Positions 1-53,649 are shown, counted from the first letter of the stretch. The stretch is 64,000 nucleotides of DNA from Candidatus Bilamarchaeaceae archaeon (GCA_038851325.1 JAWCKZ010000002.1:71888-135887), one strand, 5' to 3'. Program-made: numbers and translations. Notes: generated by a model not told the origin, from the letters alone.

Positions 1-53
1 TTTTTCCCATATACTGTAAACAACAAGCAAATACCGAACGCTTAGTGAAGAGT

Positions 54-1400
54 ATGAAATATTTCAAAACATTTATGGTGGATGCTGCAAAGCAGAAGAG
101 TAAAGGCCCTACTGCTAACCATAAACTAAACAAATTGTATGTTCAGCACGAAGGGTTGCTTACCACTCAAAACAACGTACAACCATCGCCAAGGGGGCGT
201 AATGTAACCGTACATGGTCCACTAAAAATTGCTTTGGAGGAGTTTGCGCCAGACGCCGAAAGCTACGACTCTCTACGATGTATAACCAGGTTCGCAAGCG
301 AGGACTTTAGTAGTCTTTCGGAGTACCTATTTACAGTGCTCAAAAAAGCCTTTGAAGGCGTGGTGAGATGCTCCATCTATCTTGCCGAAGAGGTAGGAAC
401 CAGGAGCAGTTTCAAAACAATCCTCTCGCATTATCTGACTATTAACATGAATGGAAATGTAAGAACAAGTTCGTTGGACAAGGGAAGCAGAATATCAGAT
501 AAGAGCGATCCTATTTTGAAGGCTTATCTGGATAAAAAACCCAGGTTTATAGATTATCGCGCGGGCATGGACCTGATTTTCAAGAATCTTAATTATGAAA
601 ACAAAGACTGTGATGTGTACGTAAGAGAACCTAACATCCTTAAAGATGATGTTGCGTTGATACCATTTTATTACAGGGAAAGGGATAAACTTCGCGGTGT
701 GATGGTACTGGAAGGAAACCTCAAGTGTAAAAATTCGGCAAAATGTGGTTTTGGGAAAGCATTCTATTTTATGATGGCAGCTACAGCACTCGGCGCCCAA
801 GTTGGTTTTATATCAATGCAAAAATACGATCACACAACCGCGCTGTATAAAAAAAGCGATTTTGAGATAGACCTAAAAACATTAATTCGCAGATTGTTAA
901 AAGCACAAAAGCGTGGTGCGCAAAAGAACGCTATTATCCTTCTCGTAGACCTTGATAATTTTAAGGCGGTCAATGAGCATTATGGATATTTAGCTGGGGA
1001 CGCTCTTCTTAGTAATATAGCAAAAGCGATAAAGAACTCCGTGCGCAGGCCCACACAAAACAGAAAATCAGACATTATAGCCAGATGGGGCGGGGAGGAG
1101 TTCGCTATTCTTCTTGAGGATATAGATGAAGAAAATGCAATCAAAATAGCCAACCGAATCAGGGACGAGGTGGCCAAGGCAAAGATAAAAGTTGACGAAA
1201 AAGAGATAAGAGTAACATGCAGCATAGGCCTTCTTAATATCGAGAAAGCTTTGGCGACAGATAAGAGAACAGGTGTGGATGAAGCAGCAAAAAATGTTTT
1301 TAATAAATGCAACACCCTTCTCAAATCTGTTAAAAGCAACGGAAAGAATGGAATAGCGTTTGTTTCAGAGGGCAATGGTGTGGAGCTGATACGCGGATAG
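54..1400 (+). CDS. GAF-GGDEF diguanylate cyclase
   Basis: LLVDLDNFKAVNEHYGYLAGD motif; RKSD-IIARW-GGEEF (RxxD I-site plus active site, GGEEF at nt 1089-1103); VTCSIG and KSNGKN; upstream GAF-like segment (ALIPF...LRGVMVL). Start ATG 54 or GTG 45. Confidence 0.9.
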   Translation: MKYFKTFMVDAAKQKSKGPTANHKLNKLYVQHEGLLTTQNNVQPSPRGRNVTVHGPLKIALEEFAPDAESYDSLRCITRFASEDFSSLSEYLFTVLKKAFEGVVRCSIYLAEEVGTRSSFKTILSHYLTINMNGNVRTSSLDKGSRISDKSDPILKAYLDKKPRFIDYRAGMDLIFKNLNYENKDCDVYVREPNILKDDVALIPFYYRERDKLRGVMVLEGNLKCKNSAKCGFGKAFYFMMAATALGAQVGFISMQKYDHTTALYKKSDFEIDLKTLIRRLLKAQKRGAQKNAIILLVDLDNFKAVNEHYGYLAGDALLSNIAKAIKNSVRRPTQNRKSDIIARWGGEEFAILLEDIDEENAIKIANRIRDEVAKAKIKVDEKEIRVTCSIGLLNIEKALATDKRTGVDEAAKNVFNKCNTLLKSVKSNGKNGIAFVSEGNGVELIRG

Positions 1401-12872: not shown

Positions 12873-14273
12873 CTATGACCCCATTTTTTCTGTCTTTGTT
12901 TTTCTGTCTTTGTTGCGGACCATGTGGATGATCGATTTATAAGACTGGAAGAGTGAATTAACAAGGGTTTGATTTCCGCCCAGATAGTAATGATGCGCCG
13001 CACCCCCCTCCTCAGCTATCTGATGCCACTCCTTTGTTTTCAGCTGCACTTCAAATCGCAGCAATCTCGAGGTGAGAACATCCTCGGGTTCGGTGTCGTA
13101 ATGGAACGCCTTATAACCATTTTCAGGTTTGACTTTGAACTCTGGAGTGCATTTTTTGTAAAGCACGCCAGGGGTTGTATTTAGTCCGCATAAATTTGAT
13201 TCTATTACTGCCTTTGCCAATTCCAGAGCTCTCCCCTTTGCGTCTTCTTCCATCTTGTCTACCTCAATCCCATGTAGTTTGTTGATGATAACGCGGAGCG
13301 CTACAAGGTCATTAAGTTTTGCAATGTCGTAGTATTGAATAATCGATCTTATATATTTGTTTAGTTTTTCTTCATTTTCCTCAGAACTCTCGTTATGACC
13401 AACATGTAGACGCTTAAACTCATCCACCAATCTTCTATATATCTTGCGCATTATTTTCCCTTCATGTTTTTTCATTCTTGGTGCAACAATCGCATCTGTG
13501 AAGCCTTGGACTCTTAACGTTTGCCTGATCCGTCTTGCAAGATCTTTGACAATGTTTTGCGTTGTATGCAGGCGTTCCGTAAGCCCGGTTTCATTCATTT
13601 TTTCCATTACATATTCGTATATCTCTCTGTGGTTTATCTTAAATGCGTGGAGAAGAATATCTCCTGCTAGGGATGGATATCCAAAAAATTCTGCCAGCGG
13701 GGCGTAGATTTTCTCCCCTGCTGTTGCGTCCCTTTTTAGAGAGTTTTCTGCATCCGATTGAGAATCGTAAAGCCTGAATATAGAACAACCATTGTTGTTA
13801 ATGACATCATTTGTTCTTTGGCTTGTTGTGTGCGTGACAGCGACATCAACTATTCGCGGCAGCAAAGCCAATGGAGCTGGTTTGTTATCATTAAGTAAAG
13901 GAATATAACTCTCCAGCGGAGCACCAGCGCGATCAAGATTTCTCAACTGACAGAATATTCTGAGTTCGTCGACTATTGCTCTTTCTTCTAGCATTTGAAG
14001 GATGGAAGGGTCCAAGCATTTAACCTTATCATAATCTATCATGTGATAAAGTACAATCTCTGTAATCCGGTGATTCAGTTCAGCCCTTTCTGGATCTTTT
14101 TTGTAGTGTTTTATTGCACTTCCATTCACCATCTTTACTTCTTCAGCCTTTTTCATGACTTCAAGGCAGTGTTGGTAGAGCTGCATAGCATTTTTTTTGA
14201 AATAAAAATTCCTAGCTGTTAGTATACTGGATTGAAGGGATGGTAATTTTTTTCTAGTTCGTATAAATTCCAT
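12873..14273 (-). CDS. RelA/SpoT homologue: degenerate HD domain plus (p)ppGpp-synthetase domain, no TGS/ACT
   Basis: IYAPLAEFFG, PRMKKHEGKIMRK, NDLVALRVII, KPENGYKAFH, FEVQLKTKEWHQIAEEGGAAHHYY. Confidence 0.88.
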   Translation of the reverse strand: MEFIRTRKKLPSLQSSILTARNFYFKKNAMQLYQHCLEVMKKAEEVKMVNGSAIKHYKKDPERAELNHRITEIVLYHMIDYDKVKCLDPSILQMLEERAIVDELRIFCQLRNLDRAGAPLESYIPLLNDNKPAPLALLPRIVDVAVTHTTSQRTNDVINNNGCSIFRLYDSQSDAENSLKRDATAGEKIYAPLAEFFGYPSLAGDILLHAFKINHREIYEYVMEKMNETGLTERLHTTQNIVKDLARRIRQTLRVQGFTDAIVAPRMKKHEGKIMRKIYRRLVDEFKRLHVGHNESSEENEEKLNKYIRSIIQYYDIAKLNDLVALRVIINKLHGIEVDKMEEDAKGRALELAKAVIESNLCGLNTTPGVLYKKCTPEFKVKPENGYKAFHYDTEPEDVLTSRLLRFEVQLKTKEWHQIAEEGGAAHHYYLGGNQTLVNSLFQSYKSIIHMVRNKDRKTKTEKMGS

Positions 14274-38491: not shown

Positions 38492-39406
38492 ATGCAAAGG
38501 ATCGTTTCGATACTTATTCTCCTACTCTTTCTATTCAGCTGTGTGCCTGGCTGTGTGTCATTTGATAAGGGCAAGAATAGGACAATTGAGAATGCAAGTT
38601 CTATGATAGATAACTGCACAGGTTGTTACGTCGAAGAAGGCACATCTGGTGTTCCGCTGACTCTGAATCAATCAAACCAATCAGGTAGTAGCAGCGAGGA
38701 AAAAATCGCAACTGGCATGGAGACCGTAGGTCAGTCAAACGAGAGCGAGAATGGCATGGAGAAAATTGAGAATGTCAGTGAGAGCAGTGCGCAGGAGAAG
38801 GCATGCATTGGTTTGGAAACATACGATATATTTGTCGCGAATAGCGTTGTCTTCAACGGCGAGAACTACTCTGATATATGCGTTACTGCAGGTGTGGTTA
38901 AGAAATACTACTGTAGAAATGATACAGCAAAAGCAGATAATTTGAATTGCCCGTCCGGCTACTGGTGCAAGAATGGCGCGTGTGTGGAATTTCAGAAAAG
39001 ATGTATTGACCCTGATGGAAATGATACTGAAGCAAGCACCACAATCACAGTTATCCCAGCCCCTTTTGCATTCTACACAGAGTCAGACAGTTGTGAGGAT
39101 GATGCAGTTGTAAGAGAATGGCTTTGCAACGAGTCCGTGCCTTATTACATGCTGATACGATGTCCGTCCGGAAAAAAATGCAGCGAAGGAAGTTGCGTGA
39201 AAAGCCGTTGCAACGAGACAGATGGCGGCGATGTACCGGAAATATTTGGCGAGGTAAGAACAAGAAACGAGACCTACCGAGACGAATGTGTTGGTGATAA
39301 ACAGTTAAAAGAGTACTACTGTTATGGTGACGATGCGACCTTGACTTTATATCGGTGCGCAGATAAGTGTAGAGACGACAAATGCACCCCGGAAGAGGGC
39401 AGTTAG
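38492..39406 (+). CDS. Cys-rich repeat surface lipoprotein-like protein
   Basis: Signal/lipobox LFSC; three repeats of D-x-C...(K/E)YYC/EWLC...C-P-x-G-x-x-C-x-x-G-x-C (third looser). Confidence 0.8.
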   Translation: MQRIVSILILLLFLFSCVPGCVSFDKGKNRTIENASSMIDNCTGCYVEEGTSGVPLTLNQSNQSGSSSEEKIATGMETVGQSNESENGMEKIENVSESSAQEKACIGLETYDIFVANSVVFNGENYSDICVTAGVVKKYYCRNDTAKADNLNCPSGYWCKNGACVEFQKRCIDPDGNDTEASTTITVIPAPFAFYTESDSCEDDAVVREWLCNESVPYYMLIRCPSGKKCSEGSCVKSRCNETDGGDVPEIFGEVRTRNETYRDECVGDKQLKEYYCYGDDATLTLYRCADKCRDDKCTPEEGS

Positions 39407-40372
39407 ATGTCCAATAAACCCAAAAAATACACTGTAAGAATAATAGGTCGTGATGAGAAAGAGCGATTGATGACAAGATACCATAAAAAAGGTCTCTACG
39501 AGTTGAAGGCAGAGATATACGGTACATGTATCAAATTTTTTACAGATAGCACGCTTCTGAAGAAGATGTGGGAAGATAATTTTGAGAAAATGCCTGAAGG
39601 GATAAGACCGCATGCACGTTTGTTTGCCGTAAAGGATGGAAAGAGACTTCGGGTCCTATACGAACCTATATCTAAGACAGTTATAGTAAAGAATTGCGAT
39701 TATTATGGTTGGATAAAAAGTATAGCGCTGGCGCTCGTCGCAGATTTCATGGAGGATTTTACTTCAGAACACCGCCGCTATTCCATTCACGGTTCATTTG
39801 TGGACAAAGATGGGCGTGGACTTGCCATAGTTGGAACGCCGGGCTCTGGAAAAACAACCTTGACCTACGGTCTTCTTTTAGATAAAAGTTTCAATTTTCT
39901 TACGGACGATTGGTTTTTTGTAAGGCTTACTGACAAGAAGGTGGCAGTTTTTTCTTCTGAGAAGAATTCTTACGTTAGGCGCGACCTGGCCAAAAACTGG
40001 CCCCAATTGAATAGTAGATTAAGAGCACTCCACTTAGATAGCAATGAAAGGGCTATTGTGGATGTAAGAAAACTGTTTGGCAACCAGAGGATAAAGAAGG
40101 AATCAACCCTAAGATTGTTAGTTATTCTAACAAGGGAGAACGGAAAACCGCTCCTTCGGAGACTGACCAGAAAAGAAGCGCTGAATTTCATGATAAATAA
40201 CGATTTTTGCAATCCGCATCAACTTATAAGAACCAAGGCACGGATGGCGCAGAGAAAGAAGTTCTTTGATGAACTCTTTTCACGAGTACCTGTTTATTTG
40301 CTCAATACAATTGAAACACCAGAAGAGTCACTCGAAAGAGTTAAGCGGTTGGCTGATAGATATCTTTGTTAG
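39407..40372 (+). CDS. HPr-kinase-related P-loop protein
   Basis: IHGSFVD..GRGLAIVGTPGSGKTT, FLTDDW. Confidence 0.75.
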   Translation: MSNKPKKYTVRIIGRDEKERLMTRYHKKGLYELKAEIYGTCIKFFTDSTLLKKMWEDNFEKMPEGIRPHARLFAVKDGKRLRVLYEPISKTVIVKNCDYYGWIKSIALALVADFMEDFTSEHRRYSIHGSFVDKDGRGLAIVGTPGSGKTTLTYGLLLDKSFNFLTDDWFFVRLTDKKVAVFSSEKNSYVRRDLAKNWPQLNSRLRALHLDSNERAIVDVRKLFGNQRIKKESTLRLLVILTRENGKPLLRRLTRKEALNFMINNDFCNPHQLIRTKARMAQRKKFFDELFSRVPVYLLNTIETPEESLERVKRLADRYLC

Positions 40373-44373: not shown

Positions 44374-47082
44374 CTATTCTTGACCACTAGTATGCGCCTG
44401 CGTCCATTCCAGATAGGACTCTGCGTTATATGGATTGTCTGTTGGGAACTGCGGTTGAACGCCATACTCGCTAAGCTTTTTCCATGATGGGCAGTAAGAG
44501 TTTTCACAATTTCTATTCAGCCAGGCGTAATAGCCCATCTTCTTAAATATCCCATACCTGTTATCATACTCTTTGCCTATCCTGCAATCAATAAACTCTA
44601 AGAAATCGTTTGCCTTGTTGTAGCAAAGGCTGCTTTTCGGTTTACATTTGCCACTCGCATCTTCTTCGCATCCTTCTGGGCATACCCCATTTTCATCAGG
44701 TTCGCATACAAGAGTCTTTGCTTTGCAGTATTCATCTACCCAACATTCAGAGGGAGAGGTGCCAGAGGGACACATATCAGGGGTATCTGTTTTGTCTTCC
44801 CATACGCCGGAATACTCATAGAGCGCAACAAAACCAATAAGAATATCTTTTTTTTGCTGGTTTCCTTCTATGCCAAACAAATCTTTCACCTTTTCACAAT
44901 CATCGTTATGCTCTTCCACCCATCTTTTTGCCCTTTTCATATCGTCTGAAAGATGAAGCGCACCCGCGCATATAGAATGGCTTGAGTTAAATGGATTATA
45001 CTCTTCTGAGCAGTAGATCTTCACTGAGGTTGGGTCTATTTTGTATCCTTCTTCATATATATCTTCATGCGGTCCGTCTGTACCATCTTCTCTGTACTCT
45101 GCTGGCCAATAGGTATACGGGGGTACCATTACCTGCATAAGCCCCATCCCACGGAAGGTATATCGAGGCGGTGTCGCTTCCGAGTTCTCAAAATAGCAGC
45201 CAGCGGTGCCTCCGCTTTCTTCATAGCGCGGGTCGTACATTTCAGGGTAGCCGAGCCTGTATGCTCTAGCGCTGCCAGGGATACACCATTTTGTTTTAGT
45301 GTTTCGTCCTTTTTCTTCCACCTCTTCTTCACGATCACCTTGATATACCTCAACATCCGTGATCTCTTTTGGAATGTCTACGCTTACCTCGAATTTACTC
45401 CTAGTTCCTGGTTTACATATGGCTGCAATTGCGCAGGAGTCAAAAGAGCTTTCACCGAGTGCAACAGCACGAAGGAGCATTGGATCAAGGTTAAACCTTG
45501 AAGCATAATATTCAAATTCAGGATAACCGGTGCATGCATAATCTGGAAGGCTACCGGGCATATGTTTTTTTAATACTGGGTAAACCACAGTTATATCCTC
45601 TGCTTCAGAAAGACAGGCATCGCATCTCCAAGGAGACTCTATTTCTGTTTGATACGTTGGCATTACTGGGTTGAGGAGATCTGTGTAACCGCCTTCTCTG
45701 GAGGTCAACAGGCTATAAAGCGCATCTGTTGAGGACTCTCCGACGTCGCATATTCCTCCTGGTACATTTGAAAAATGTATTGGTGGAATTGCTGTTCCGA
45801 TCTTTTCGACATTGGTACCCTCTCCCTTTTCAAATCCAACATAATTTTGGCAATTCCCAAACCACGCTACCTTTCGCTCATATTTCGTTGTCACGCCACA
45901 ATCTGTGCAGTGAAGCGGGTTGTTCCATGACCCGCCTTCTGTAGTATAAAGCGCTGCGCCTATAACCCCAACTCTACTCAACGCTTTTATTCCATATATA
46001 AAGAATGAGTTGTAAGCATCTGTGACAGCATTTTCGCTCCATGTGCATTTATTGTTAAGGTCGCTCCCTCCGGAGTCTATTAAGATGTATGGTATTATAG
46101 ACGGTAGACCGTATCGGTAGAGCGCATAGCTCGAGAACTGTCTTCCATCTTCTATTAATCTGTTGCCGTTGCAGTCATACTTGTTCGTTCCATTTATATA
46201 ATGCGAGTTTAGGCCATAGGCAACCAAATGGATATACCGCTTATATGCTCCTTCTCCATATCTTGCATCTATACTATTTATGACGGCATCGAGGGCAGCT
46301 TTGTCTCCGATCCTAGGCGCAACAGCAACCATGCAATATATCTTTGGTTCGTTTGGATTCCTGAAATCGTTGCAGTTTTCGTTTATCGCTATAACCTGAC
46401 CAGCAACGTTCTCGACAGCCTCTGGATCGCTGCTGTTGAACTCTAGTTCGGTAACTATTACTACTGGTCCGACTGGTCCTTCCACACTACCTTGTGTTAT
46501 TATGGGAAGACCTTCTTTTCCAAGTATTCTCGCAATCTCTCCAGCACGGTCGACGTCTATGTTTTTTCCTTCGCTGTAAAGAACATAGACTGGTAGGGTT
46601 TCCTTATCGAGCATGCAGATCGCGCGGCTAGCATCGGGCAAATCGTATGGTCTATACTCGTTTGCCGTGAGCCAATGGACAGCCATACGCAATCTGGCAT
46701 TACATAATCCGTTTGCTGTTCCAAAGTCCGCGAAACTTGGTCCTTGGCCTATCATTATTGGTCGCCAGACATACTCCTGACCTAGCTGAGAGCTTGTATT
46801 TCTGTATTCAGTTAACTTTGTTTCGTTACAGGCAGTATCGAATATGCATCTTCCACCAACAATGGAAGAGAAAAAGAATCTATAAAATGCCGGACCTCTC
46901 TCGCACACCATGCACGTGCAGTTTCCTAATGTGCACTCCCCTTCTGGAGAGAGAGCTGGTGTCCGGGACATTCGTATTAAATATTCATCGGCATAATTAT
47001 TGCCGCCAAGCGTTTTTATACATCCAAGGGTAATGAGAGCGCATATAAGAAGCGCTATCATGGTCGGTCTAGTTTTGTTCAT
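44374..47082 (-). CDS. Large Cys-rich lipoprotein-like protein with lytic transglycosylase (SLT/GH23-like) domain
   Basis: LITLGC lipobox; ASRFNLDPMLLRAVALGESSF, GMGLMQV, PFNSSHSICAGALHL, ALYEYSG. Confidence 0.75.
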   Translation of the reverse strand: MNKTRPTMIALLICALITLGCIKTLGGNNYADEYLIRMSRTPALSPEGECTLGNCTCMVCERGPAFYRFFFSSIVGGRCIFDTACNETKLTEYRNTSSQLGQEYVWRPIMIGQGPSFADFGTANGLCNARLRMAVHWLTANEYRPYDLPDASRAICMLDKETLPVYVLYSEGKNIDVDRAGEIARILGKEGLPIITQGSVEGPVGPVVIVTELEFNSSDPEAVENVAGQVIAINENCNDFRNPNEPKIYCMVAVAPRIGDKAALDAVINSIDARYGEGAYKRYIHLVAYGLNSHYINGTNKYDCNGNRLIEDGRQFSSYALYRYGLPSIIPYILIDSGGSDLNNKCTWSENAVTDAYNSFFIYGIKALSRVGVIGAALYTTEGGSWNNPLHCTDCGVTTKYERKVAWFGNCQNYVGFEKGEGTNVEKIGTAIPPIHFSNVPGGICDVGESSTDALYSLLTSREGGYTDLLNPVMPTYQTEIESPWRCDACLSEAEDITVVYPVLKKHMPGSLPDYACTGYPEFEYYASRFNLDPMLLRAVALGESSFDSCAIAAICKPGTRSKFEVSVDIPKEITDVEVYQGDREEEVEEKGRNTKTKWCIPGSARAYRLGYPEMYDPRYEESGGTAGCYFENSEATPPRYTFRGMGLMQVMVPPYTYWPAEYREDGTDGPHEDIYEEGYKIDPTSVKIYCSEEYNPFNSSHSICAGALHLSDDMKRAKRWVEEHNDDCEKVKDLFGIEGNQQKKDILIGFVALYEYSGVWEDKTDTPDMCPSGTSPSECWVDEYCKAKTLVCEPDENGVCPEGCEEDASGKCKPKSSLCYNKANDFLEFIDCRIGKEYDNRYGIFKKMGYYAWLNRNCENSYCPSWKKLSEYGVQPQFPTDNPYNAESYLEWTQAHTSGQE

Positions 47083-47166: not shown

Positions 47167-50100
47167 TTATGCTGCAGCCATGTAAGCCCATGTATGTTTG
47201 TTTATCTTATCTGAGTATATCGTAGCTCCGCATCTGCATCTTTCCCCTCTCATGTGCGGCGTGCCGCATCTGGCGCACCAGACATGAGAGCCTGCCTTAT
47301 GCGGTGTAGCTGCTCTCCATAGTCCATCCTTTATCTGCGTTGCCATGTCTGCAATTCTGACATCCCATGATGCGCTTACGCCATACTTTCTCTTCTCTGC
47401 GTATCTTCCGACTGCGTCCCTTATTGTCATGGATGTGGGGAACGCTGGAAGTGGCATGTGCCATGCGAACATGAATGGGTTGAACCAGCCATAGATTGGG
47501 TTTTGTGCTATCCCAAAGTGTCTTATCTCTTGATCAAATTTCATTGCAAGAGCCTCTGCAGCAACTGTTCTTCTTATTGTTGACCTCATAGCTTGTTCCT
47601 GTATTTCCCTGTCTGCAATATATGCTGCATCCCTGTTTCTCCATAGATAGCTTGCCAGTGCTTCGTCTAGCTTAAGTTCATATCTGTGCGTATAGTAGCT
47701 TGCACCTGGATTGGCTTCTCCCACCCTAGCATACGCATACACGCCTGTCCTTCTGAAGAAGAAGTCAGACGGGCTCTGTCTAAGACCACCCATTATCTCT
47801 GCCCCTGCTGTGTGGCGCTGCTCTGCGGTTGTTTGCCAGGTCTTTAGTTTTGCTAGTTTTCCATTTCCAACAATAAGGTGAAGAGGTGCACTCATCATTT
47901 CACGAAGTCTCGGCTCTGTGTATCTAAATGGTTCGTATGAGTCTGCAAGGTTGTCCCATCTAGATGGTGAACCATGCGCAGCAACCTGGAAGCTTCTGAA
48001 CATGTTCACGAACGGTTTATGTACCTTACTAGCAAGGTCCATAGGCCATCCATAGAGCGCGTAGAACCCTGCCCATTCCCCACCGGTCATTGTTGCTCTA
48101 ACATACTCCTTAATACCACCAAGAAGGTGTCCAGGTCCGTGGTGGAAAAAGTGCTCTGTGACCTGCAGCAAACCTTGCGAAGCTGTTGTTCTAACACCTC
48201 TGTCTATGCACCACTCCCAAGCATGGTGGTAAGGGAAGTGAGTTGCCACAACATTCCGATAAGCGCTTTTTTCAGCAGCACTCATATCCTTCCAATCCTC
48301 CCATTTCTTCGTGTAGAAGTTCGCGGCGAGTCTGTATGAGTGTTGTCTCAAATACTCTGTTTGTGGTACTATGTCATAAGATGCATCAAACACCGGCCCT
48401 GCACCCATAAGCGTTGTTTTTACTGCATAGGCGCCAAGGTCGGTCTTAAGATTCCTCCATGCAGTCATTAGCCATCTTGCTTTCTCGTTTTCATTCATTC
48501 CAAGCATTCTAAACGTTTGTGGGGCGATTTCCGTCACTTCTCTAACTGGCTTTATCTCAAGCGCAGTATCTCTCCAGTACTTCTGGTAGTCAGACGTACT
48601 TCTTCCATGTTGCATCACAAGTGCTGCGAATATCTTTTCCCTCTCATAGTCGTACCCGTTCTCTCCCTTCCATTTCTTTACGGCATTTATGAAAACATCC
48701 CAATCTGCACCTGGTCCCTTTTCTTTTAGTTTACTGAATTCAGCCTGAAGGTCAGGTCTTCCCTTGAACTGTATAACAACATCCTCTGGAACAAACTTTC
48801 TCCACTGCCCTTTATTGTCCCTCAGGGCAACGTCCCCATAAACCTTATCTGCTATACTAAGCGGCATTCCTTTTCTGTAGTATGCGAAGTCGCCTTCATA
48901 GAGTTGCACAAGTGGTCTTGAAGAAGTTAAGATGTCATCAAATGTTACCCCTTTCTTTAGTTCTGCCATAAATTCCTTTTTGTATTTCTGTACTATTTCT
49001 TCCCTGAAAATCTTGAGTTGTCCTACATCTGATGTACTCATGGCCTTTACACGATTTAGGTCTGGGTGATTCTCAAGCAACCCTTTGTCCTTCATTGCCT
49101 TTTCATAAAAGCCAAGCAATATCCCCACGTAGAAGTTTGCTCTTTCTCCGAATTTTCCATAGGCGTCTGGAGCAAACTGTGAATTAAACCTCTGCTCGCA
49201 GTCTTGTCTAATCTGCTCTAGCACCCACTCCCTCTTTGCGTTGTATGTCCTCTCCTCGACGCTCCACTTAGCTGAGCCTGGTCTTCTGTTGAGCTCTGCC
49301 TCTATCGATGCCTTGTAGGGTGAGATGTTAGATCTTGTGAATCTTGATTCCACCCACTGAGCTATTGCATATCCTTCTGCTGGTTTGAGCTCGCCAACCC
49401 ATGGTCTTTTCATATCAAGTTTAAACCACTCCTTCGCAGGTCCTACCTCCTTTGGTTCTCCGAAACACGCTACCCTTCCAAGTCGGTCCTCCTTCAATTT
49501 CTCAAAATCCTTTGGAACTCTTCCGATACCGTAGAGCATGTCTATTATCTGTTTTACAGAAGCAGACTCTGCCGGTCCATTTATACTCTTCGCAAGCGCT
49601 TTCTTTCCTGCATCTGTCATGAGTGCAAGGAGCATTGCTTTGTTGCTAGCTTCTATCTTTTTAAGCTCTGAGATGTTTGCTCTTATGAATTCTGGCAACT
49701 CGTTCGGGTTACTTGTAGGAATAAGACCAGTTACCCTGTTTCTTACTTCCAGGACTGTCCTCCATAGCGCCTCCTTAAGCCCTCCTTTCATATAACCATT
49801 TTCAGCATCCCACAGCAAGGTTCTAAGGACAGCTGTCTCCCAGATATCGCTGCCGCAAATAGAAGAGCGTCCAACTACTGTGTAGAATTTATCTGTTATC
49901 AATGCCTTGTTAACTGCGGCCGCTGGGACTGTTTTCTCGTGCTCTGCGAGTATCTCGCGCAGCATAAGGTATTTTATGTATCCATCTTCCTTTCCATACA
50001 TTTTGTCTATCTCGTTAAGCCTTTCGTTGAATTTAAAAAGCGAAGTATCTATGACTGCACCATGCGCTTTTGCAAGTGCTATGAGCGCAGCAAGCTTATC

Positions 50101-52005
50101 ATCAAGCGTTCCTTTACCCGTTAATATTGTTCTGAGTTCCTTTTCAATCGCTTCTATCTTTGCAGCTGCCTTGCTGTAACCGGACTTGTCGAGTATGTTA
50201 ACATCTTTGATGCACAATCCCAGCAGATCTTCCTCTGTTAGCGCGAAGTTAACACCAAGGGCTTTGTAGAGTTGTTTCATAACATACTTTATTTCATCCC
50301 TTTTGATCTCCTCTTTGATCATCTCGTACGCAGCGCTCATCTTCTCGTGTATCGCCACCTTTTGACCAAGTGGCATTCCAACAGGCGGTTTCTTAAGTTC
50401 CTTCGCAGCCCATGCCGCAAGCGTAGAGACCTTTCCTTTTTCCTCAAGCTTCTCTAGCGCTCTTGGTCCACCTACAAGTTCCATTGTTGTGCGTGCAACC
50501 CCTCTCGCTAATGTTGGGGCTTGTCTTACCATTTCCTTTGTTCCTCTAGCAAGCCATCTGCTACTTCTCACCATGGATTCGTATGAGCTCATTACAAGAG
50601 CGCTGTAAACAGTGTATCTATTTGAGCCAACGAATTTTGCAAGTCCGTTCTGCAATTTAGCATGCCACTTGCTTTTTACTCCTGGGGCCGGATGTCCTGA
50701 AAGAACATCCATTGTCTCAAGTGCTTTTTTAGTTAAAATATAATCTTTGATGTAGCCAGCCATCACTTCTTCTCTTCCACCCTTTGCTTTCATCGCAGAG
50801 AGTATCTGTTCTACTGCTTTTGCTTCGATTTCTCCGTGTGCTGACAGAGGCTTCTTGAGAACTGTGGCGAGCGCCTCTTTTTGGCCTGTCGCAGCTGCGC
50901 CATAGGCGAGCGCTTCCATTACGACGCTATCCTCCTTGCTCATCTTTGTGGCCAGTTTTCTTATTCCTGCGGCAGCCATCTGCCCAGTAGTTGTGTACCC
51001 TATCTTCTCCTTAAGCGTGCTACATGTTTTCTTTAAGAAATCTGCCGCTGCATCGCTCTTGTTTTTCATAGCCCTCTTCATCTCACCATAACCGTATGGA
51101 AGAAGAACCTGTCCACTGGCAACAAATCCTTTTGGTTGCGGCATCCTGGGCGTAGTAATGTCAAGAAGGCTCATCGGGGACTTTCCTGCAAAATACATTG
51201 AGGCAAGAAGAAGCCCTAATACCATAAATACGCCCAAGCAGAGGAAGGAATTCTCCCTAGCGGCTTTCTGAAGATGTCCTGAAACGGTGTTATATACTAT
51301 ATCAAATACACTCACAGAAACATCAGAAATCTCTACTACTTGCGGGGCTGCGGATATATAGTATCTCTGCCCGTCTATTTCAACCGCACCGCCGTTTTCT
51401 TCAGGGGGTTCGTATTCGATTAATACTCGAGCTCTTGTTCCTCTGTATACGCTCTCCGGCACTTTACATTCAGCATAATAAAGTATCGCATCTCCAGAGG
51501 CATCAGGAGTTATCAACTCTGGCTTCTGCATTTCCATGTTAGCCAACAATACTGGGATCGCTCGCGTTCCGCTATCACAACCAGGTATTGCCTGATACGT
51601 ATGCGCAATGGGGTTGTAGTAGGTAAATGCTATGGCTGCGTTCTTAACAGATTTGTAGATATACCTTTCAGGGCTTAGATAGCGCTTTGAGATGTTCATG
51701 TAGCATGCGTAGTAATCCGGATATCCAAGAGAAGCATAATCAGCGCATTCTGTTTTTATTTCGTTATACAATACATCTATCTCAACTGGTTGCATGTTAG
51801 TTGTATTCAGGATCGGAACAACAACTCCTGCCCTTATTACCTCGTTCTTTTCGCCGCTTTGCTCAACCCAGATATGTGCTCCGACTTGGACAGCACCTGT
51901 TTGCTGGTTAGTTTGCTGAGGAGTTACCTGTGCCCAAGATAGAGCGACCACTAACACAACGGCAAAAAGCCCGACAAGGGATAATATTTTTTTCATATTT
52001 ATCAA
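47167..52005 (-). CDS. Giant 1612-aa membrane protein with C-terminal zinc ribbon
   Basis: Signal peptide, TM at ~aa 254-273, long Lys/Ala-rich helical region, CARC...CRC at the C-terminus. Confidence 0.8.
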   Translation of the reverse strand: MINMKKILSLVGLFAVVLVVALSWAQVTPQQTNQQTGAVQVGAHIWVEQSGEKNEVIRAGVVVPILNTTNMQPVEIDVLYNEIKTECADYASLGYPDYYACYMNISKRYLSPERYIYKSVKNAAIAFTYYNPIAHTYQAIPGCDSGTRAIPVLLANMEMQKPELITPDASGDAILYYAECKVPESVYRGTRARVLIEYEPPEENGGAVEIDGQRYYISAAPQVVEISDVSVSVFDIVYNTVSGHLQKAARENSFLCLGVFMVLGLLLASMYFAGKSPMSLLDITTPRMPQPKGFVASGQVLLPYGYGEMKRAMKNKSDAAADFLKKTCSTLKEKIGYTTTGQMAAAGIRKLATKMSKEDSVVMEALAYGAAATGQKEALATVLKKPLSAHGEIEAKAVEQILSAMKAKGGREEVMAGYIKDYILTKKALETMDVLSGHPAPGVKSKWHAKLQNGLAKFVGSNRYTVYSALVMSSYESMVRSSRWLARGTKEMVRQAPTLARGVARTTMELVGGPRALEKLEEKGKVSTLAAWAAKELKKPPVGMPLGQKVAIHEKMSAAYEMIKEEIKRDEIKYVMKQLYKALGVNFALTEEDLLGLCIKDVNILDKSGYSKAAAKIEAIEKELRTILTGKGTLDDKLAALIALAKAHGAVIDTSLFKFNERLNEIDKMYGKEDGYIKYLMLREILAEHEKTVPAAAVNKALITDKFYTVVGRSSICGSDIWETAVLRTLLWDAENGYMKGGLKEALWRTVLEVRNRVTGLIPTSNPNELPEFIRANISELKKIEASNKAMLLALMTDAGKKALAKSINGPAESASVKQIIDMLYGIGRVPKDFEKLKEDRLGRVACFGEPKEVGPAKEWFKLDMKRPWVGELKPAEGYAIAQWVESRFTRSNISPYKASIEAELNRRPGSAKWSVEERTYNAKREWVLEQIRQDCEQRFNSQFAPDAYGKFGERANFYVGILLGFYEKAMKDKGLLENHPDLNRVKAMSTSDVGQLKIFREEIVQKYKKEFMAELKKGVTFDDILTSSRPLVQLYEGDFAYYRKGMPLSIADKVYGDVALRDNKGQWRKFVPEDVVIQFKGRPDLQAEFSKLKEKGPGADWDVFINAVKKWKGENGYDYEREKIFAALVMQHGRSTSDYQKYWRDTALEIKPVREVTEIAPQTFRMLGMNENEKARWLMTAWRNLKTDLGAYAVKTTLMGAGPVFDASYDIVPQTEYLRQHSYRLAANFYTKKWEDWKDMSAAEKSAYRNVVATHFPYHHAWEWCIDRGVRTTASQGLLQVTEHFFHHGPGHLLGGIKEYVRATMTGGEWAGFYALYGWPMDLASKVHKPFVNMFRSFQVAAHGSPSRWDNLADSYEPFRYTEPRLREMMSAPLHLIVGNGKLAKLKTWQTTAEQRHTAGAEIMGGLRQSPSDFFFRRTGVYAYARVGEANPGASYYTHRYELKLDEALASYLWRNRDAAYIADREIQEQAMRSTIRRTVAAEALAMKFDQEIRHFGIAQNPIYGWFNPFMFAWHMPLPAFPTSMTIRDAVGRYAEKRKYGVSASWDVRIADMATQIKDGLWRAATPHKAGSHVWCARCGTPHMRGERCRCGATIYSDKINKHTWAYMAAA

Positions 52006-52097
52006 CTCTGAAAATATTCGCCCCTCAAGTCCTTTTTAAATATTTCGATTTTAGAAAGATTTAAAACTACAAATACTACAATATATGTAGTGATTAC

Positions 52098-53123
52098 ATG
52101 AAGAATAACCCTTTCTTACCATGGAAAATAACAGAAAATATCATAGGGATGAGGGAAGAGCGTAGACTTTTGTCAGTTTTTCTTGATAGACTTTTCAGCG
52201 GAAAGGCAGGTATTGCGGTATGCAGGGGACCACCCGGTACAGGGAAAACTACTCTTCTCAAACTTGCACAAGCACAGGGAAAAGGGGCAGGAGCCCTTTC
52301 TGCATTCGTTAAGGCAGGAAAAAGAGAAAAGGAGAGTAGTATAGTGCGGGCCCTTAAGGCGGAATTCGAGAGCGAATTATCAAAGCTTTCAGAAGGCGGC
52401 GATCTTGCGCCTTCAAAAGTGCGGTTGTTTTCGCAGGAGGGTGTTGGTACATTCAATCAGTTGTTCTCTGCTATAGGAAAAATAGTTGGTAGAATGCCCA
52501 TACTCATTATAGTAGACGACATAGATCTTGCGCAACATCCAATCGAGATTTTGAGAAGTATAGCTAAAGATACAGAAAAGTACTCAGCGGCCGTAATCGT
52601 TTCAACGACAAAGAGCATAATCCTTCCGCCAGGAGCGTTTCTCATCGAACTTAGGCCAGTTCGCGAGGAGGAATTTAGAGTTTATGTTGAAGAAAACACG
52701 AGAAAAGGTATCAGGCTCGGGGAGGAGTGCCTAAAGGCGATCTACGCAGACAGCGGTGGAAATCCAAAAGTGATACAGTTTGTGTTGTGGCAACTTTATG
52801 ACGCGGCAAAGGAGACCGATAAGGTAATAACGCGTGCGCATTACACAGCAAACATCCGGAATGCGCTTGCGCTTCTTTCACACGAGTGGTTTAGTAAGCA
52901 ATATTTTGAGGCGTCAGACGAGGAGAAGCGCATCTTAAGACGGCTTGCGCAGGTTGGAGAAGCAAGCGTGACAGAGCTTGCTATTGCGCTCAGGAAAAGG
53001 CCAGGGCCTGTTGCCACGTTATTGCTTCGGCTGGAGGCGCGTGGGGACATCTTGAAAGTGGCGCGTGGGCGATATAAGGTCTTCTGTCCTTTGTATGCGA
53101 AGTTTATTCTGGAAAGGAGTTAG
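52098..53123 (+). CDS. Archaeal AAA ATPase with C-terminal winged helix
   Basis: [22 protein letters not shown]-terminal HTH. Confidence 0.85.
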   Translation: MKNNPFLPWKITENIIGMREERRLLSVFLDRLFSGKAGIAVCRGPPGTGKTTLLKLAQAQGKGAGALSAFVKAGKREKESSIVRALKAEFESELSKLSEGGDLAPSKVRLFSQEGVGTFNQLFSAIGKIVGRMPILIIVDDIDLAQHPIEILRSIAKDTEKYSAAVIVSTTKSIILPPGAFLIELRPVREEEFRVYVEENTRKGIRLGEECLKAIYADSGGNPKVIQFVLWQLYDAAKETDKVITRAHYTANIRNALALLSHEWFSKQYFEASDEEKRILRRLAQVGEASVTELAIALRKRPGPVATLLLRLEARGDILKVARGRYKVFCPLYAKFILERS

Positions 53124-53649
53124 AAATAGATGCGTACACTCCTTCCTGCCAATCTTCCTCAAAAATTTTCATAAATTCATCAGCAAGAGTATTACGAAGG
53201 ATAAGGGAGACCTCTCTATTCTGATAAAGTGCAGAATGGCTGAGGTTGTGTGAACCAACTAGCACGTCAGTGCCATCTCGGATTATGAATTTTGTGTGAT
53301 AGGTTTTGCACCCTACCCCGAATTTCACAGGAATGCCGGCAGCCGAAAGTCTTTCCAGAACCCAAGTATTTTCTTCTTTGTAAGGGCCACGATCAACGAT
53401 TACCCTAACATCAACTCCCCTTCTCTTTGCTTCTATGAGCGCATTCGTCACCTCCGTTGAGGAGATGAAGTATACCTCAACATCGAGCGATTGCCGTGCG
53501 CCATCTATGAAGTCAAGTATTTCCCTTCCGTTTTCCGGAGATACAACAATATGCAGAGAGTAAAATGCACCGTGGGCGAAAAAACCGAGAATGAATCCAA
53601 GCGCTATGCAGAACGGAATGAGGAGGTACAGGAATTGTCTTCTGTTCAA
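53104..53649 (-). CDS. Phospholipase D/Nuc-family protein (single HKD), exported or membrane-anchored
   Basis: HTKFIIRD...VGSHN...NRE; N-terminal RRQFL plus hydrophobic helix. Confidence 0.88.
   Translation of the reverse strand: MNRRQFLYLLIPFCIALGFILGFFAHGAFYSLHIVVSPENGREILDFIDGARQSLDVEVYFISSTEVTNALIEAKRRGVDVRVIVDRGPYKEENTWVLERLSAAGIPVKFGVGCKTYHTKFIIRDGTDVLVGSHNLSHSALYQNREVSLILRNTLADEFMKIFEEDWQEGVYASISNSFPE

Follow-up and report, generated by a model that had tools for sequence, protein, structure and literature searches.

Why would an archaeon that makes no murein keep a protein with the catalytic motifs of lytic transglycosylases, and on what would such a protein act? The question is raised by one open reading frame (ORF; 44374..47082, minus strand, 902 amino acids) in a 64,000-nucleotide stretch of DNA from Candidatus Bilamarchaeaceae archaeon (GCA_038851325.1 JAWCKZ010000002.1:71888-135887), referred to below as the window. 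An initial annotation had described the product as a surface lipoprotein with SLT motifs separated by Cys-rich insertions and with a barrel-like N-terminal half. By profile comparison, our analyses identify the C-terminal half as a genuine SLT/GH23 domain that has diverged strongly. Tentatively, and short of even confidence, we favor the reading that the protein is a secreted two-domain glycanase that acts on foreign bacterial murein and is paired with a giant membrane protein encoded upstream. Directly supported are the homology, the motif conservation, the gene linkage, the phyletic pattern and the lack of a match to the murein gene families searched.

All sequence strings quoted in the initial annotation are present in the ORF at the places given for them, and the catalytic-type Glu that it had put near 45450 is Glu544, whose codon is 45451-45453. 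The protein is laid out as follows:

47020..47082, minus strand: signal peptide with a lipobox-like end (residues 1-21, ...LITLGC), from its hydrophobic segment and the conservation of G20/C21
46801..47019, minus strand: short N-terminal Cys-rich segment (residues 22-94), with C55 kept in 75/75, C60 in 74/75 and C79 in 74/75
45583..46800, minus strand: N-terminal domain (residues 95-500), candidate eight-stranded beta/alpha barrel, from sequence pattern and a low-confidence Atlas model
44713..45549, minus strand: diverged SLT/GH23-like domain (residues 512-790), from profile-profile homology and conserved motifs
45442..45489, minus strand: motif I, LDPMLLRAVALGESSF (residues 532-547), with Glu544 at 45451-45453, from conservation and alignment to the canonical E-S
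45145..45447, minus strand: insertion 1 (residues 546-646), between E-S and G-L-M-Q, with conserved C550, C600, D617-P618 and C629
45130..45150, minus strand: motif II, GMGLMQV (residues 645-651), which aligns with the GLMQ of canonical SLT domains
44950..44991, minus strand: FNSSHSICAGALHL (residues 698-711), counterpart of the SLT D-P-x-x-N-I-x-x-G-x-x-Y-L helix in the hhalign alignment
44806..44826, minus strand: motif III-like ALYEYSG (residues 753-759), assigned by eye
44377..44712, minus strand: C-terminal Cys-rich region (residues 791-902), with C793, C805, C820, C833, C859 and C864 each kept in at least 93%

For the C-terminal half, we compared family profiles with a canonical reference alignment of 11 SLT domains from the same phylum and the C-domain of Escherichia coli Slt70. 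The whole-length family profile, built from 80 sequences, aligned with this reference in hhalign with a probability of 86.2 and an E value of 4.9e-6. The columns of the C-domain alone gave a probability of 93.6 (E 2e-7), and a separate 28-sequence alignment of the domain gave 91.3 (E 9.5e-7). The aligned parts comprise E-S, G-L-M-Q and the P-x-N...G...L helix, in the right order. Against the single E. coli Slt70 domain, the E value was only 0.065, and the best PDB sequence match of the domain profile, the transglycosylase EtgA (4xp8), was nonsignificant (E 0.16). The search with the PF01464 hidden Markov model (HMM) that had been proposed as a check was split: relatives match, whereas the query alone reaches 16.1 bits against a cut-off of 21.3. 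PF01464 was matched at E<=0.1 by 8 of 19 homologues (best, 1.1e-5). At least 11 ORFs that are orthologous by family profile also exceeded the SLT cut-off at the same place in a scan of the phylum, for which all tallies refer to 301 genomes, including the unpublished genome G029, none of whose sequences entered the analysis. The homology to SLT/GH23 claimed by the initial annotation, and the retention of its catalytic-type Glu, are thus borne out, by the hhalign E values of 4.9e-6 to 2e-7 and by the presence of E544 in 79/80 sequences.

Conservation within the domain is concentrated in the motifs. The E-S of motif I aligns with the invariant E-S of canonical SLT domains; Glu544 is replaced once (by Asp) in the 80 sequences, and S545 is kept in 66/80, D533 in 79/80 and R538 in 79/80. 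In motif II, G647 is found in 78/80, M649 in 64/80 and Q650 in 76/80, and at the helix motif N696 is present in 78/80, P697 in 80/80, F698 in 78/80, C705 in 80/80 and G707 in 72/80. The motif III-like segment (A753, 58/80; Y757, 69/80; G759, 76/80) is one residue shorter than A...Y-N-x-G. Overall identity to homologues is only 26-49%, and a near-invariant Glu with near-invariant neighbors amid such fast divergence is the pattern expected of a working active site. Orthologues flagged as same-genus are only 36-39% identical, and synonymous sites between them are therefore saturated.

The Cys-rich insertions that had been noted between the motifs are real and long, and there are two of them. E-S and G-L-M-Q lie 102 residues apart in the query and 45-105 (median 73) in the family, compared to 15 in 11/12 canonical SLT domains. 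The query therefore does not have the compact SLT layout of ~120 residues with ~15 residues between E-S and G-L-M-Q, and this stretching of the spacing hides the domain from detection. Among 20 short relatives that consist of the C-domain only, six match SLT at E<=0.01; seven have a signal peptide and a lipobox-like Cys, two more have a hydrophobic N-terminus and the rest are fragment-like.

The initial annotation had likened the N-terminal half to a glycoside-hydrolase barrel, citing VIVTELEFN (residues 208-216), GLPSII (325-330) and GVIGAALY (372-379). Residues 95-500 are the better conserved part of the protein (38% mean identity) and contain eight hydrophobic strand-like segments, which start near residues 109, 131, 162, 204, 248, 284, 329 and 372 and are 22-45 residues apart. 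Conserved polar positions are E212 (74/75), D/E336 (95%), D/E260 (92%) and N/D292 (97%). Glu212 (46447-46449) directly follows the fourth segment (204-211), and residue 336 (46075-46077; 63 Asp and 9 Glu among 76 homologues) follows the seventh (329-334), with the strands numbered from sequence alone. The ESM Atlas model of the protein is of low confidence (pLDDT 0.47, pTM 0.42). Ten neighbors are listed for residues 99-498 of this low-confidence model, with four rows for GH53, two of GH51/ASD1 type, one of cellulase type and three without a family name; their TM scores are 0.52-0.58 over 267-306 residues, for a model whose pLDDT is 0.47. No Pfam family was matched in the N-domain at E<=1 with the query or at E<=0.1 with 19 homologues, and the N-domain profile found no match among PDB sequences. 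hhalign against six archaeal GH5 domains gave a probability of 0.05. A profile search for stand-alone N-domain relatives found none outside the family, the one protein retrieved being itself a family member. A barrel is thus suggested by the eight spaced strand-like segments and the Atlas neighbors (TM 0.52-0.58), but every sequence test for a glycosidase family was negative. We consider residues 95-500 to be probably a barrel-type, glycosidase-like domain in which Glu212 and Asp336 would lie at strand ends.

The protein is predicted to be exported. Its hydrophobic N-terminal segment spans residues 8-26, with LGC within the N-terminus; Gly20 is conserved in 73/75 homologues and Cys21 in 74/75. 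Cys21 is the predicted lipid-attachment or N-terminal residue, and the status as a lipoprotein is likewise a prediction. Neither Lgt (PF01790) nor LspA (PF01252) was found in the organism's own genome (90.9% complete); lipoprotein processing in archaea probably involves other enzymes. Of the 39 Cys in the protein, 29 are conserved at a level of at least 90%, counted over the homologues without a gap at the position in question. Residues 22-94 show a mean identity to homologues of 28% and have no family match, and the profile of the C-terminal Cys-rich region found no match among PDB sequences. A description as a sequon-rich, N-glycosylated protein was rejected, as there are 7 sequons and 5.6 ± 2.2 expected.

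Searches of NCBIfam, PADLOC and PHROGs with the 902-residue protein found nothing, and no significant match to a PDB sequence was obtained with the protein, with the family profile or with any of three domain profiles. At E<=1e-3 the family comprises 204 cluster representatives, and 91 remain at E<=1e-30; near-length proteins clustered at 90% number 19, the query included; a precomputed Pfam domain is absent in 18 of these 19 representatives, again including the query. All named members are annotated "hypothetical protein," and the name of a member of the query's own 90%-identity cluster is "hypothetical protein, Candidatus Bilamarchaeaceae archaeon." One related genome (G243) has the glycanase gene twice, as full-length tandem copies on contig C5 (57135-59597 and 59725-62214).

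The family is tightly linked to a second one. The genes and the site that surround the 902-aa gene are:

47167..52005, minus strand: giant single-pass membrane protein, the upstream partner gene, 1612 aa from TTG 52005 and more likely 1609 aa from ATG 51996
52077..52089, no strand: palindrome TACA-N5-TGTA, located between the divergent genes and 9 nt before the ATG of the ATPase/wHTH gene
52098..53123, plus strand: AAA-type ATPase with a C-terminal winged-helix-like region (ATPase/wHTH), 341 aa, with AAA_16, AAA_22 and ATPase_2 matches
53104..53649, minus strand: small PLD-family nuclease (NucT/DrmC-like, HxKxxxxD at residue 118) with an N-terminal membrane/signal segment
40387..44295, minus strand: 1302-aa coiled-coil surface protein with a C-terminal membrane anchor, the downstream neighbor

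A homologue of the giant protein is encoded directly upstream, on the same strand, in 33/34 related loci, and the exception is a contig of 3.2 kb. Across the phylum, the glycanase family is present in 124/301 genomes (f1, 62/64; f2, 21/23; f10, 0/75; f11, 0/54) and the giant family in 116/301 (f1, 64/64; f2, 22/23; f10, 0/75; f11, 0/54); the two differ in f6, where the giant family is found in 3/14 genomes and the glycanase in 14/14. In Micrarchaeota (Bilamarchaeaceae-like) the 902-aa gene occurs in single copy and is inherited vertically, and in most of the related loci topoisomerase VI genes lie downstream of it. The giant protein has a signal peptide (residues 7-25), an acidic ectodomain with four Cys (26-253), a transmembrane segment (254-272), ~1340 basic residues, which presumably lie inside the cell, and a C-terminal zinc ribbon. 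It matches nothing in Pfam, NCBIfam, PHROG, PADLOC, PDB (sequence) or the Atlas, save for a zinc finger in 4/22 members. The giant family is more conserved than the glycanase (43% vs. 38% mean column identity), and its strongest block is the membrane segment with the ...SLLDITTPR.P.PKG... stretch that follows.

The gene downstream of the glycanase gene appears to be a different matter. The 1302-aa gene was considered as part of the module and rejected, because it is downstream in 0/34 related loci; it adjoins the 902-aa gene in a same-genus genome (G064). Of the 71 genomes of the taxonomic family, 60 encode a member of its family, usually at another locus, and the organism has a paralogue that is 26% identical on another contig (C3). 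T-runs and TATA-like stretches lie 5' of both the glycanase gene and the 1302-aa gene, and co-transcription is therefore not certain. The 1302-aa protein starts with a signal peptide and ends in a C-terminal anchor; in between are long coiled coils and a glycine-zipper hairpin (residues ~120-165) similar to the hairpins of DUF6861 and of phage tape-measure and tail-lysin proteins. It may be of envelope or S-layer type.

On the other side of the pair, an ATPase/wHTH homologue lies upstream of the giant gene, on the opposite strand, in 27/34 loci. Its residues 210-326 give weak matches to helix-turn-helix regions of the Csa3/CasR type, and the protein is a candidate regulator of the glycanase/giant pair. 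Of 28 such intergenic regions (that of the window and those of 27 loci), 23 have precisely one copy of the palindrome, with a background in the same loci of 0.085 per kb. In the whole window there are five matches to TACA-N5-TGTA where 0.62 ± 0.91 are expected; the four other copies are at 14052, 30084, 36058 and 49024, and two of them lie between convergent genes. The PLD nuclease, probably extracellular because of its N-terminal membrane or signal segment, is encoded in synteny with the module in 21/34 loci. A defense system made up of the PLD nuclease and the ATPase was rejected: the nuclease gene is in another transcription unit, and co-occurrence in 21/34 loci looks like general synteny, as for topoisomerase VI.

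The host itself bears on the substrate. The archaeal origin is supported by genes in the window for CDP-archaeol synthase, Cdc48, ABCE1 and a Pab1020-type ligase, and the closest named homologues are from Bilamarchaeaceae/Micrarchaeota. The window is ordinary archaeal chromosome that also encodes ribosomal proteins, EF-2 and tRNA enzymes, with an even GC content of 39-45%; these genes and this even composition speak against a prophage or conjugative element, a reading that was dropped, and a tblastn search of a phage collection with the SLT-like domain found no match. The source genome (0.90 Mb in 18 contigs, 90.9% complete) has one copy of the 902-aa gene. The stretch was found in four DNA runs, all from one hot-spring metagenome study and one of them perhaps its source, and no RNA run was listed that contains the 902-aa gene. 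NCBI places Bilamarchaeum in the lineage Micrarchaeia, Anstonellales, and the 34 related public loci are labeled Micrarchaeota, Micrarchaeia, Bilamarchaeum or "ainarchaeum," with a few given only as "archaeon."

Neither FtsW/RodA nor a penicillin-binding transpeptidase was found in this 90.9% complete genome, which makes a murein wall of the organism's own unlikely and agrees with the initial annotation of an archaeal host without peptidoglycan. One Mur-ligase-type ORF is present, and the same profile also matched in archaeal control genomes. Murein is the textbook substrate of SLT domains. Since the archaeon makes no murein, the likeliest substrate of the glycanase would be the peptidoglycan of foreign bacteria, be they partners, prey or debris. 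As the genome shows neither murein synthesis genes nor other murein-directed enzymes, the substrate may be a bacterial wall or another GlcNAc glycan. Attack on bacterial walls has been proposed for transglycosylases of DPANN archaea (PMC8204110, PMC9723730, PMC5864196, PMC10936187, in the passages that deal with them).

We propose the following model. The 902-aa protein would be a secreted, probably membrane-tethered and disulfide-rich protein with two glycan-active domains, its export, lipidation and activity being predicted from sequence, and it would act outside the cell. There, Glu544 would serve as the single general acid on the beta-1,4 bond after a MurNAc- or GlcNAc-type sugar. The glycanase would be made and used together with the giant membrane protein, as their gene linkage suggests. 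The pair would probably be controlled by the ATPase/wHTH protein, which would bind the conserved palindrome. A more specific and rather unlikely version, drawn by analogy with FtsEX, is that giant protein and glycanase form a regulated trans-envelope module restricted to part of the Micrarchaeota, in which the ~1340 inner residues would, by way of the ~230-residue ectodomain, place the outer enzyme or turn it on and off; the enzyme would open the glycan layer of a partner, or the organism's own, at cell contact. An unassigned barrel-shaped docking complex seen by cryo-tomography in a cultured relative, in the part of PMC11329633 that describes it, is a candidate contact site.

Several observations weigh against foreign murein as the substrate of an active SLT enzyme. 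The query's match to the Pfam SLT family, below the gathering score, has an E value of 0.0082 and covers motif I only (profile positions 4-32), its score in the genome scan was 13.3 bits, and motif III (A-Y-N-A-G) was not confidently aligned by hhalign. Peptidase M23, Amidase_3, NlpC/P60 and LysM were not found in the organism's own genome, and no known peptidoglycan-binding module was found by Pfam in the 902-aa protein. A single-copy, vertically inherited gene beside housekeeping genes and with its own regulator fits envelope housekeeping as well as predation. In addition, GH23 also includes hydrolytic lysozymes and chitinases, and the motifs do not reveal which chemistry and substrate apply. 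The members of the phylum in culture that are described in PMC8975820 and PMC11329633 have archaeal, not bacterial, hosts. Much of this would also fit an enzyme of the same architecture and chemistry whose substrate is a non-murein beta-1,4-GlcNAc-type glycan, such as chitin or chito-oligosaccharides, the S-layer or matrix of an archaeal partner or the organism's own envelope glycan; its pairing with the giant protein would then serve envelope remodeling or contact with an archaeal host. We regard this as a serious possibility. Besides the archaeal hosts known in the phylum and the lack of further murein-directed enzymes or binding modules in the genome, it draws on the vertical conservation in a housekeeping neighborhood (topoisomerase VI downstream in most loci) with a dedicated palindrome, and on the fact that the only conserved strand-end acids of the barrel-like domain are Glu212 and Asp336. 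The conserved Asp617 between E-S and G-L-M-Q may point the same way, as the extra acids of hydrolytic GH23 enzymes lie in this interval. To our knowledge, however, all characterized family-1 SLT domains act on murein, and the closest profiles to the query's domain are canonical SLT domains. Moreover, Pfam found no chitin-binding or other carbohydrate-binding family in the protein. No archaeal polymer of this kind is known in the lineage, and the terms "cell wall," "murein" and "peptidoglycan" are absent from the main text of PMC12892359.

The remaining explanations question the enzyme itself. Long insertions inside the catalytic core, an altered motif III and an N-domain without a sequence link to any active glycosidase family would suit noncatalytic SLT-like and barrel-like domains that bind glycans or have a structural role in a surface complex with the giant protein, but E544 (79/80), S545 (66/80), G647 (78/80) and Q650 (76/80) are near invariant while the rest diverges fast, and we judge loss of catalysis improbable. 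Least probable by far is that the motif resemblance is due to chance and the C-terminal half unrelated to SLT. The single sequence does stay under the Pfam cut-off and has no significant PDB sequence match; the three profile-profile comparisons (E 4.9e-6, 2e-7 and 9.5e-7), in which the motifs align in their proper order, and the many orthologues that exceed the Pfam cut-off at the same place argue strongly against coincidence. We thus return to a secreted glycanase directed at foreign murein as the reading that we favor, tentatively.

Compared to known systems, the C-terminal domain is closest to the family-1 lytic transglycosylases (Slt70 C-domain, MltC and MltE), with which it shares the order E-S, G-L-M-Q, P-x-N...G...L and a single conserved catalytic-type Glu. 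Mlt enzymes are anchored in the membrane as lipoproteins, and the predicted extracytoplasmic location and lipoprotein-like anchor of the 902-aa protein resemble this arrangement. It differs from family-1 enzymes in the spacing (102 vs. 15), in motif III (A-x-x-x-Y-x-G vs. A-x-x-x-Y-N-x-G), in its many conserved Cys, in its fusion to a 400-residue barrel-like domain, in its murein-free archaeal host and in a score below the Pfam cut-off. The N-domain may resemble clan GH-A glycosidases (GH53 galactanase, GH5 cellulase and the GH51 catalytic domain) in its eight evenly spaced strand-like segments and in conserved acids after putative strands 4 and 7; unlike them, it shows no sequence or profile similarity, its second acid is mostly Asp, and the Atlas model on which the likeness draws is of low confidence. 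Wall cutters tied to membrane machines are familiar from VirB1 with type IV secretion, EtgA with type III secretion and FtsEX with EnvC/PcsB. By analogy, the 902-aa gene adjoins the gene for a membrane-spanning partner that would presumably position or control the enzyme, although the giant protein, unlike the partners in those systems, matches no secretion, division or ABC family.

An archaeal SLT domain is not in itself new, since canonical SLT domains exceed the cut-off in 78/301 genomes of the phylum, G029 among them. For DPANN archaea, three Micrarchaeota genomes among them, lytic transglycosylase domains have been published before (PMC5864196, PMC8204110, PMC9723730), and fam00969, a family of large extracellular murein-like transglycosylase proteins, is described in the part of PMC8204110 concerned with Pacearchaeota and Woesearchaeota, not Micrarchaeota. 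As presented in the main-text passages of these papers, the published DPANN proteins are similar to the 902-aa family in being secreted, in having an SLT-type domain and in their proposed action on bacterial walls. They differ in that they are recognized by standard annotation, whereas the 902-aa family is "hypothetical protein," and in that they come from other lineages and have other architectures, with lengths of up to 3,000 aa vs. ~850-900 aa. These main-text passages do not mention that such proteins are constantly paired with a giant membrane protein. Of two genomic studies of Micrarchaeota, PMC12892359 does not use the words lysozyme, transglycosylase, cell wall, murein or peptidoglycan in the main text, and PMC8561730 has one mention of GH23, in another order. 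Supplementary tables aside, the insertion-split, barrel-fused family, its pairing with the giant protein and the palindrome are not described in the literature searched. The 902-aa family is an extension of the known theme of DPANN SLT domains and founds no new class.

Other genes in the window and in related genomes were recorded as well. The plus-strand gene at 45..1400 encodes a protein of 451 aa in which a GGDEF diguanylate-cyclase domain scores 104.6 bits; PF00990 (GGDEF) exceeds the cut-off in 111/301 genomes of the phylum, G029 included, and among control genomes it was matched in eight, all bacterial and none archaeal. Cyclic-di-GMP-type signaling may thus be common in Micrarchaeota. 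A 466-aa protein (12873..14273, minus strand) has a RelA/SpoT-type nucleotidyltransferase region (33.7 bits), which is unusual for archaea. The gene at 38492..39406 (plus strand), whose 304-aa product contains 22 Cys and has a lipobox-like N-terminus, is followed without a gap by that for an HPr-kinase-C-like P-loop protein (39407..40372, plus strand), and the two genes have the same order in the same-genus genome G064. In very small genomes (0.5-0.6 Mb) of a sister family, proteins of 572-928 aa carry a strong GH5 cellulase domain (E ~1e-53; loci L059-L061 in genomes G289, G299 and G259).

Little is known of the ways in which DPANN archaea make contact with other cells, cling to them and exploit them, and the glycanase described here is a concrete, expressible candidate for an enzyme in these contacts. 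With its predicted catalytic residues (E544; E212 and D336), a fixed membrane partner and a candidate operator, the question of whether it cuts bacterial walls or another glycan becomes directly testable. Finally, because standard annotation misses the 902-aa family, counts of the murein-degrading potential of DPANN archaea are underestimates.

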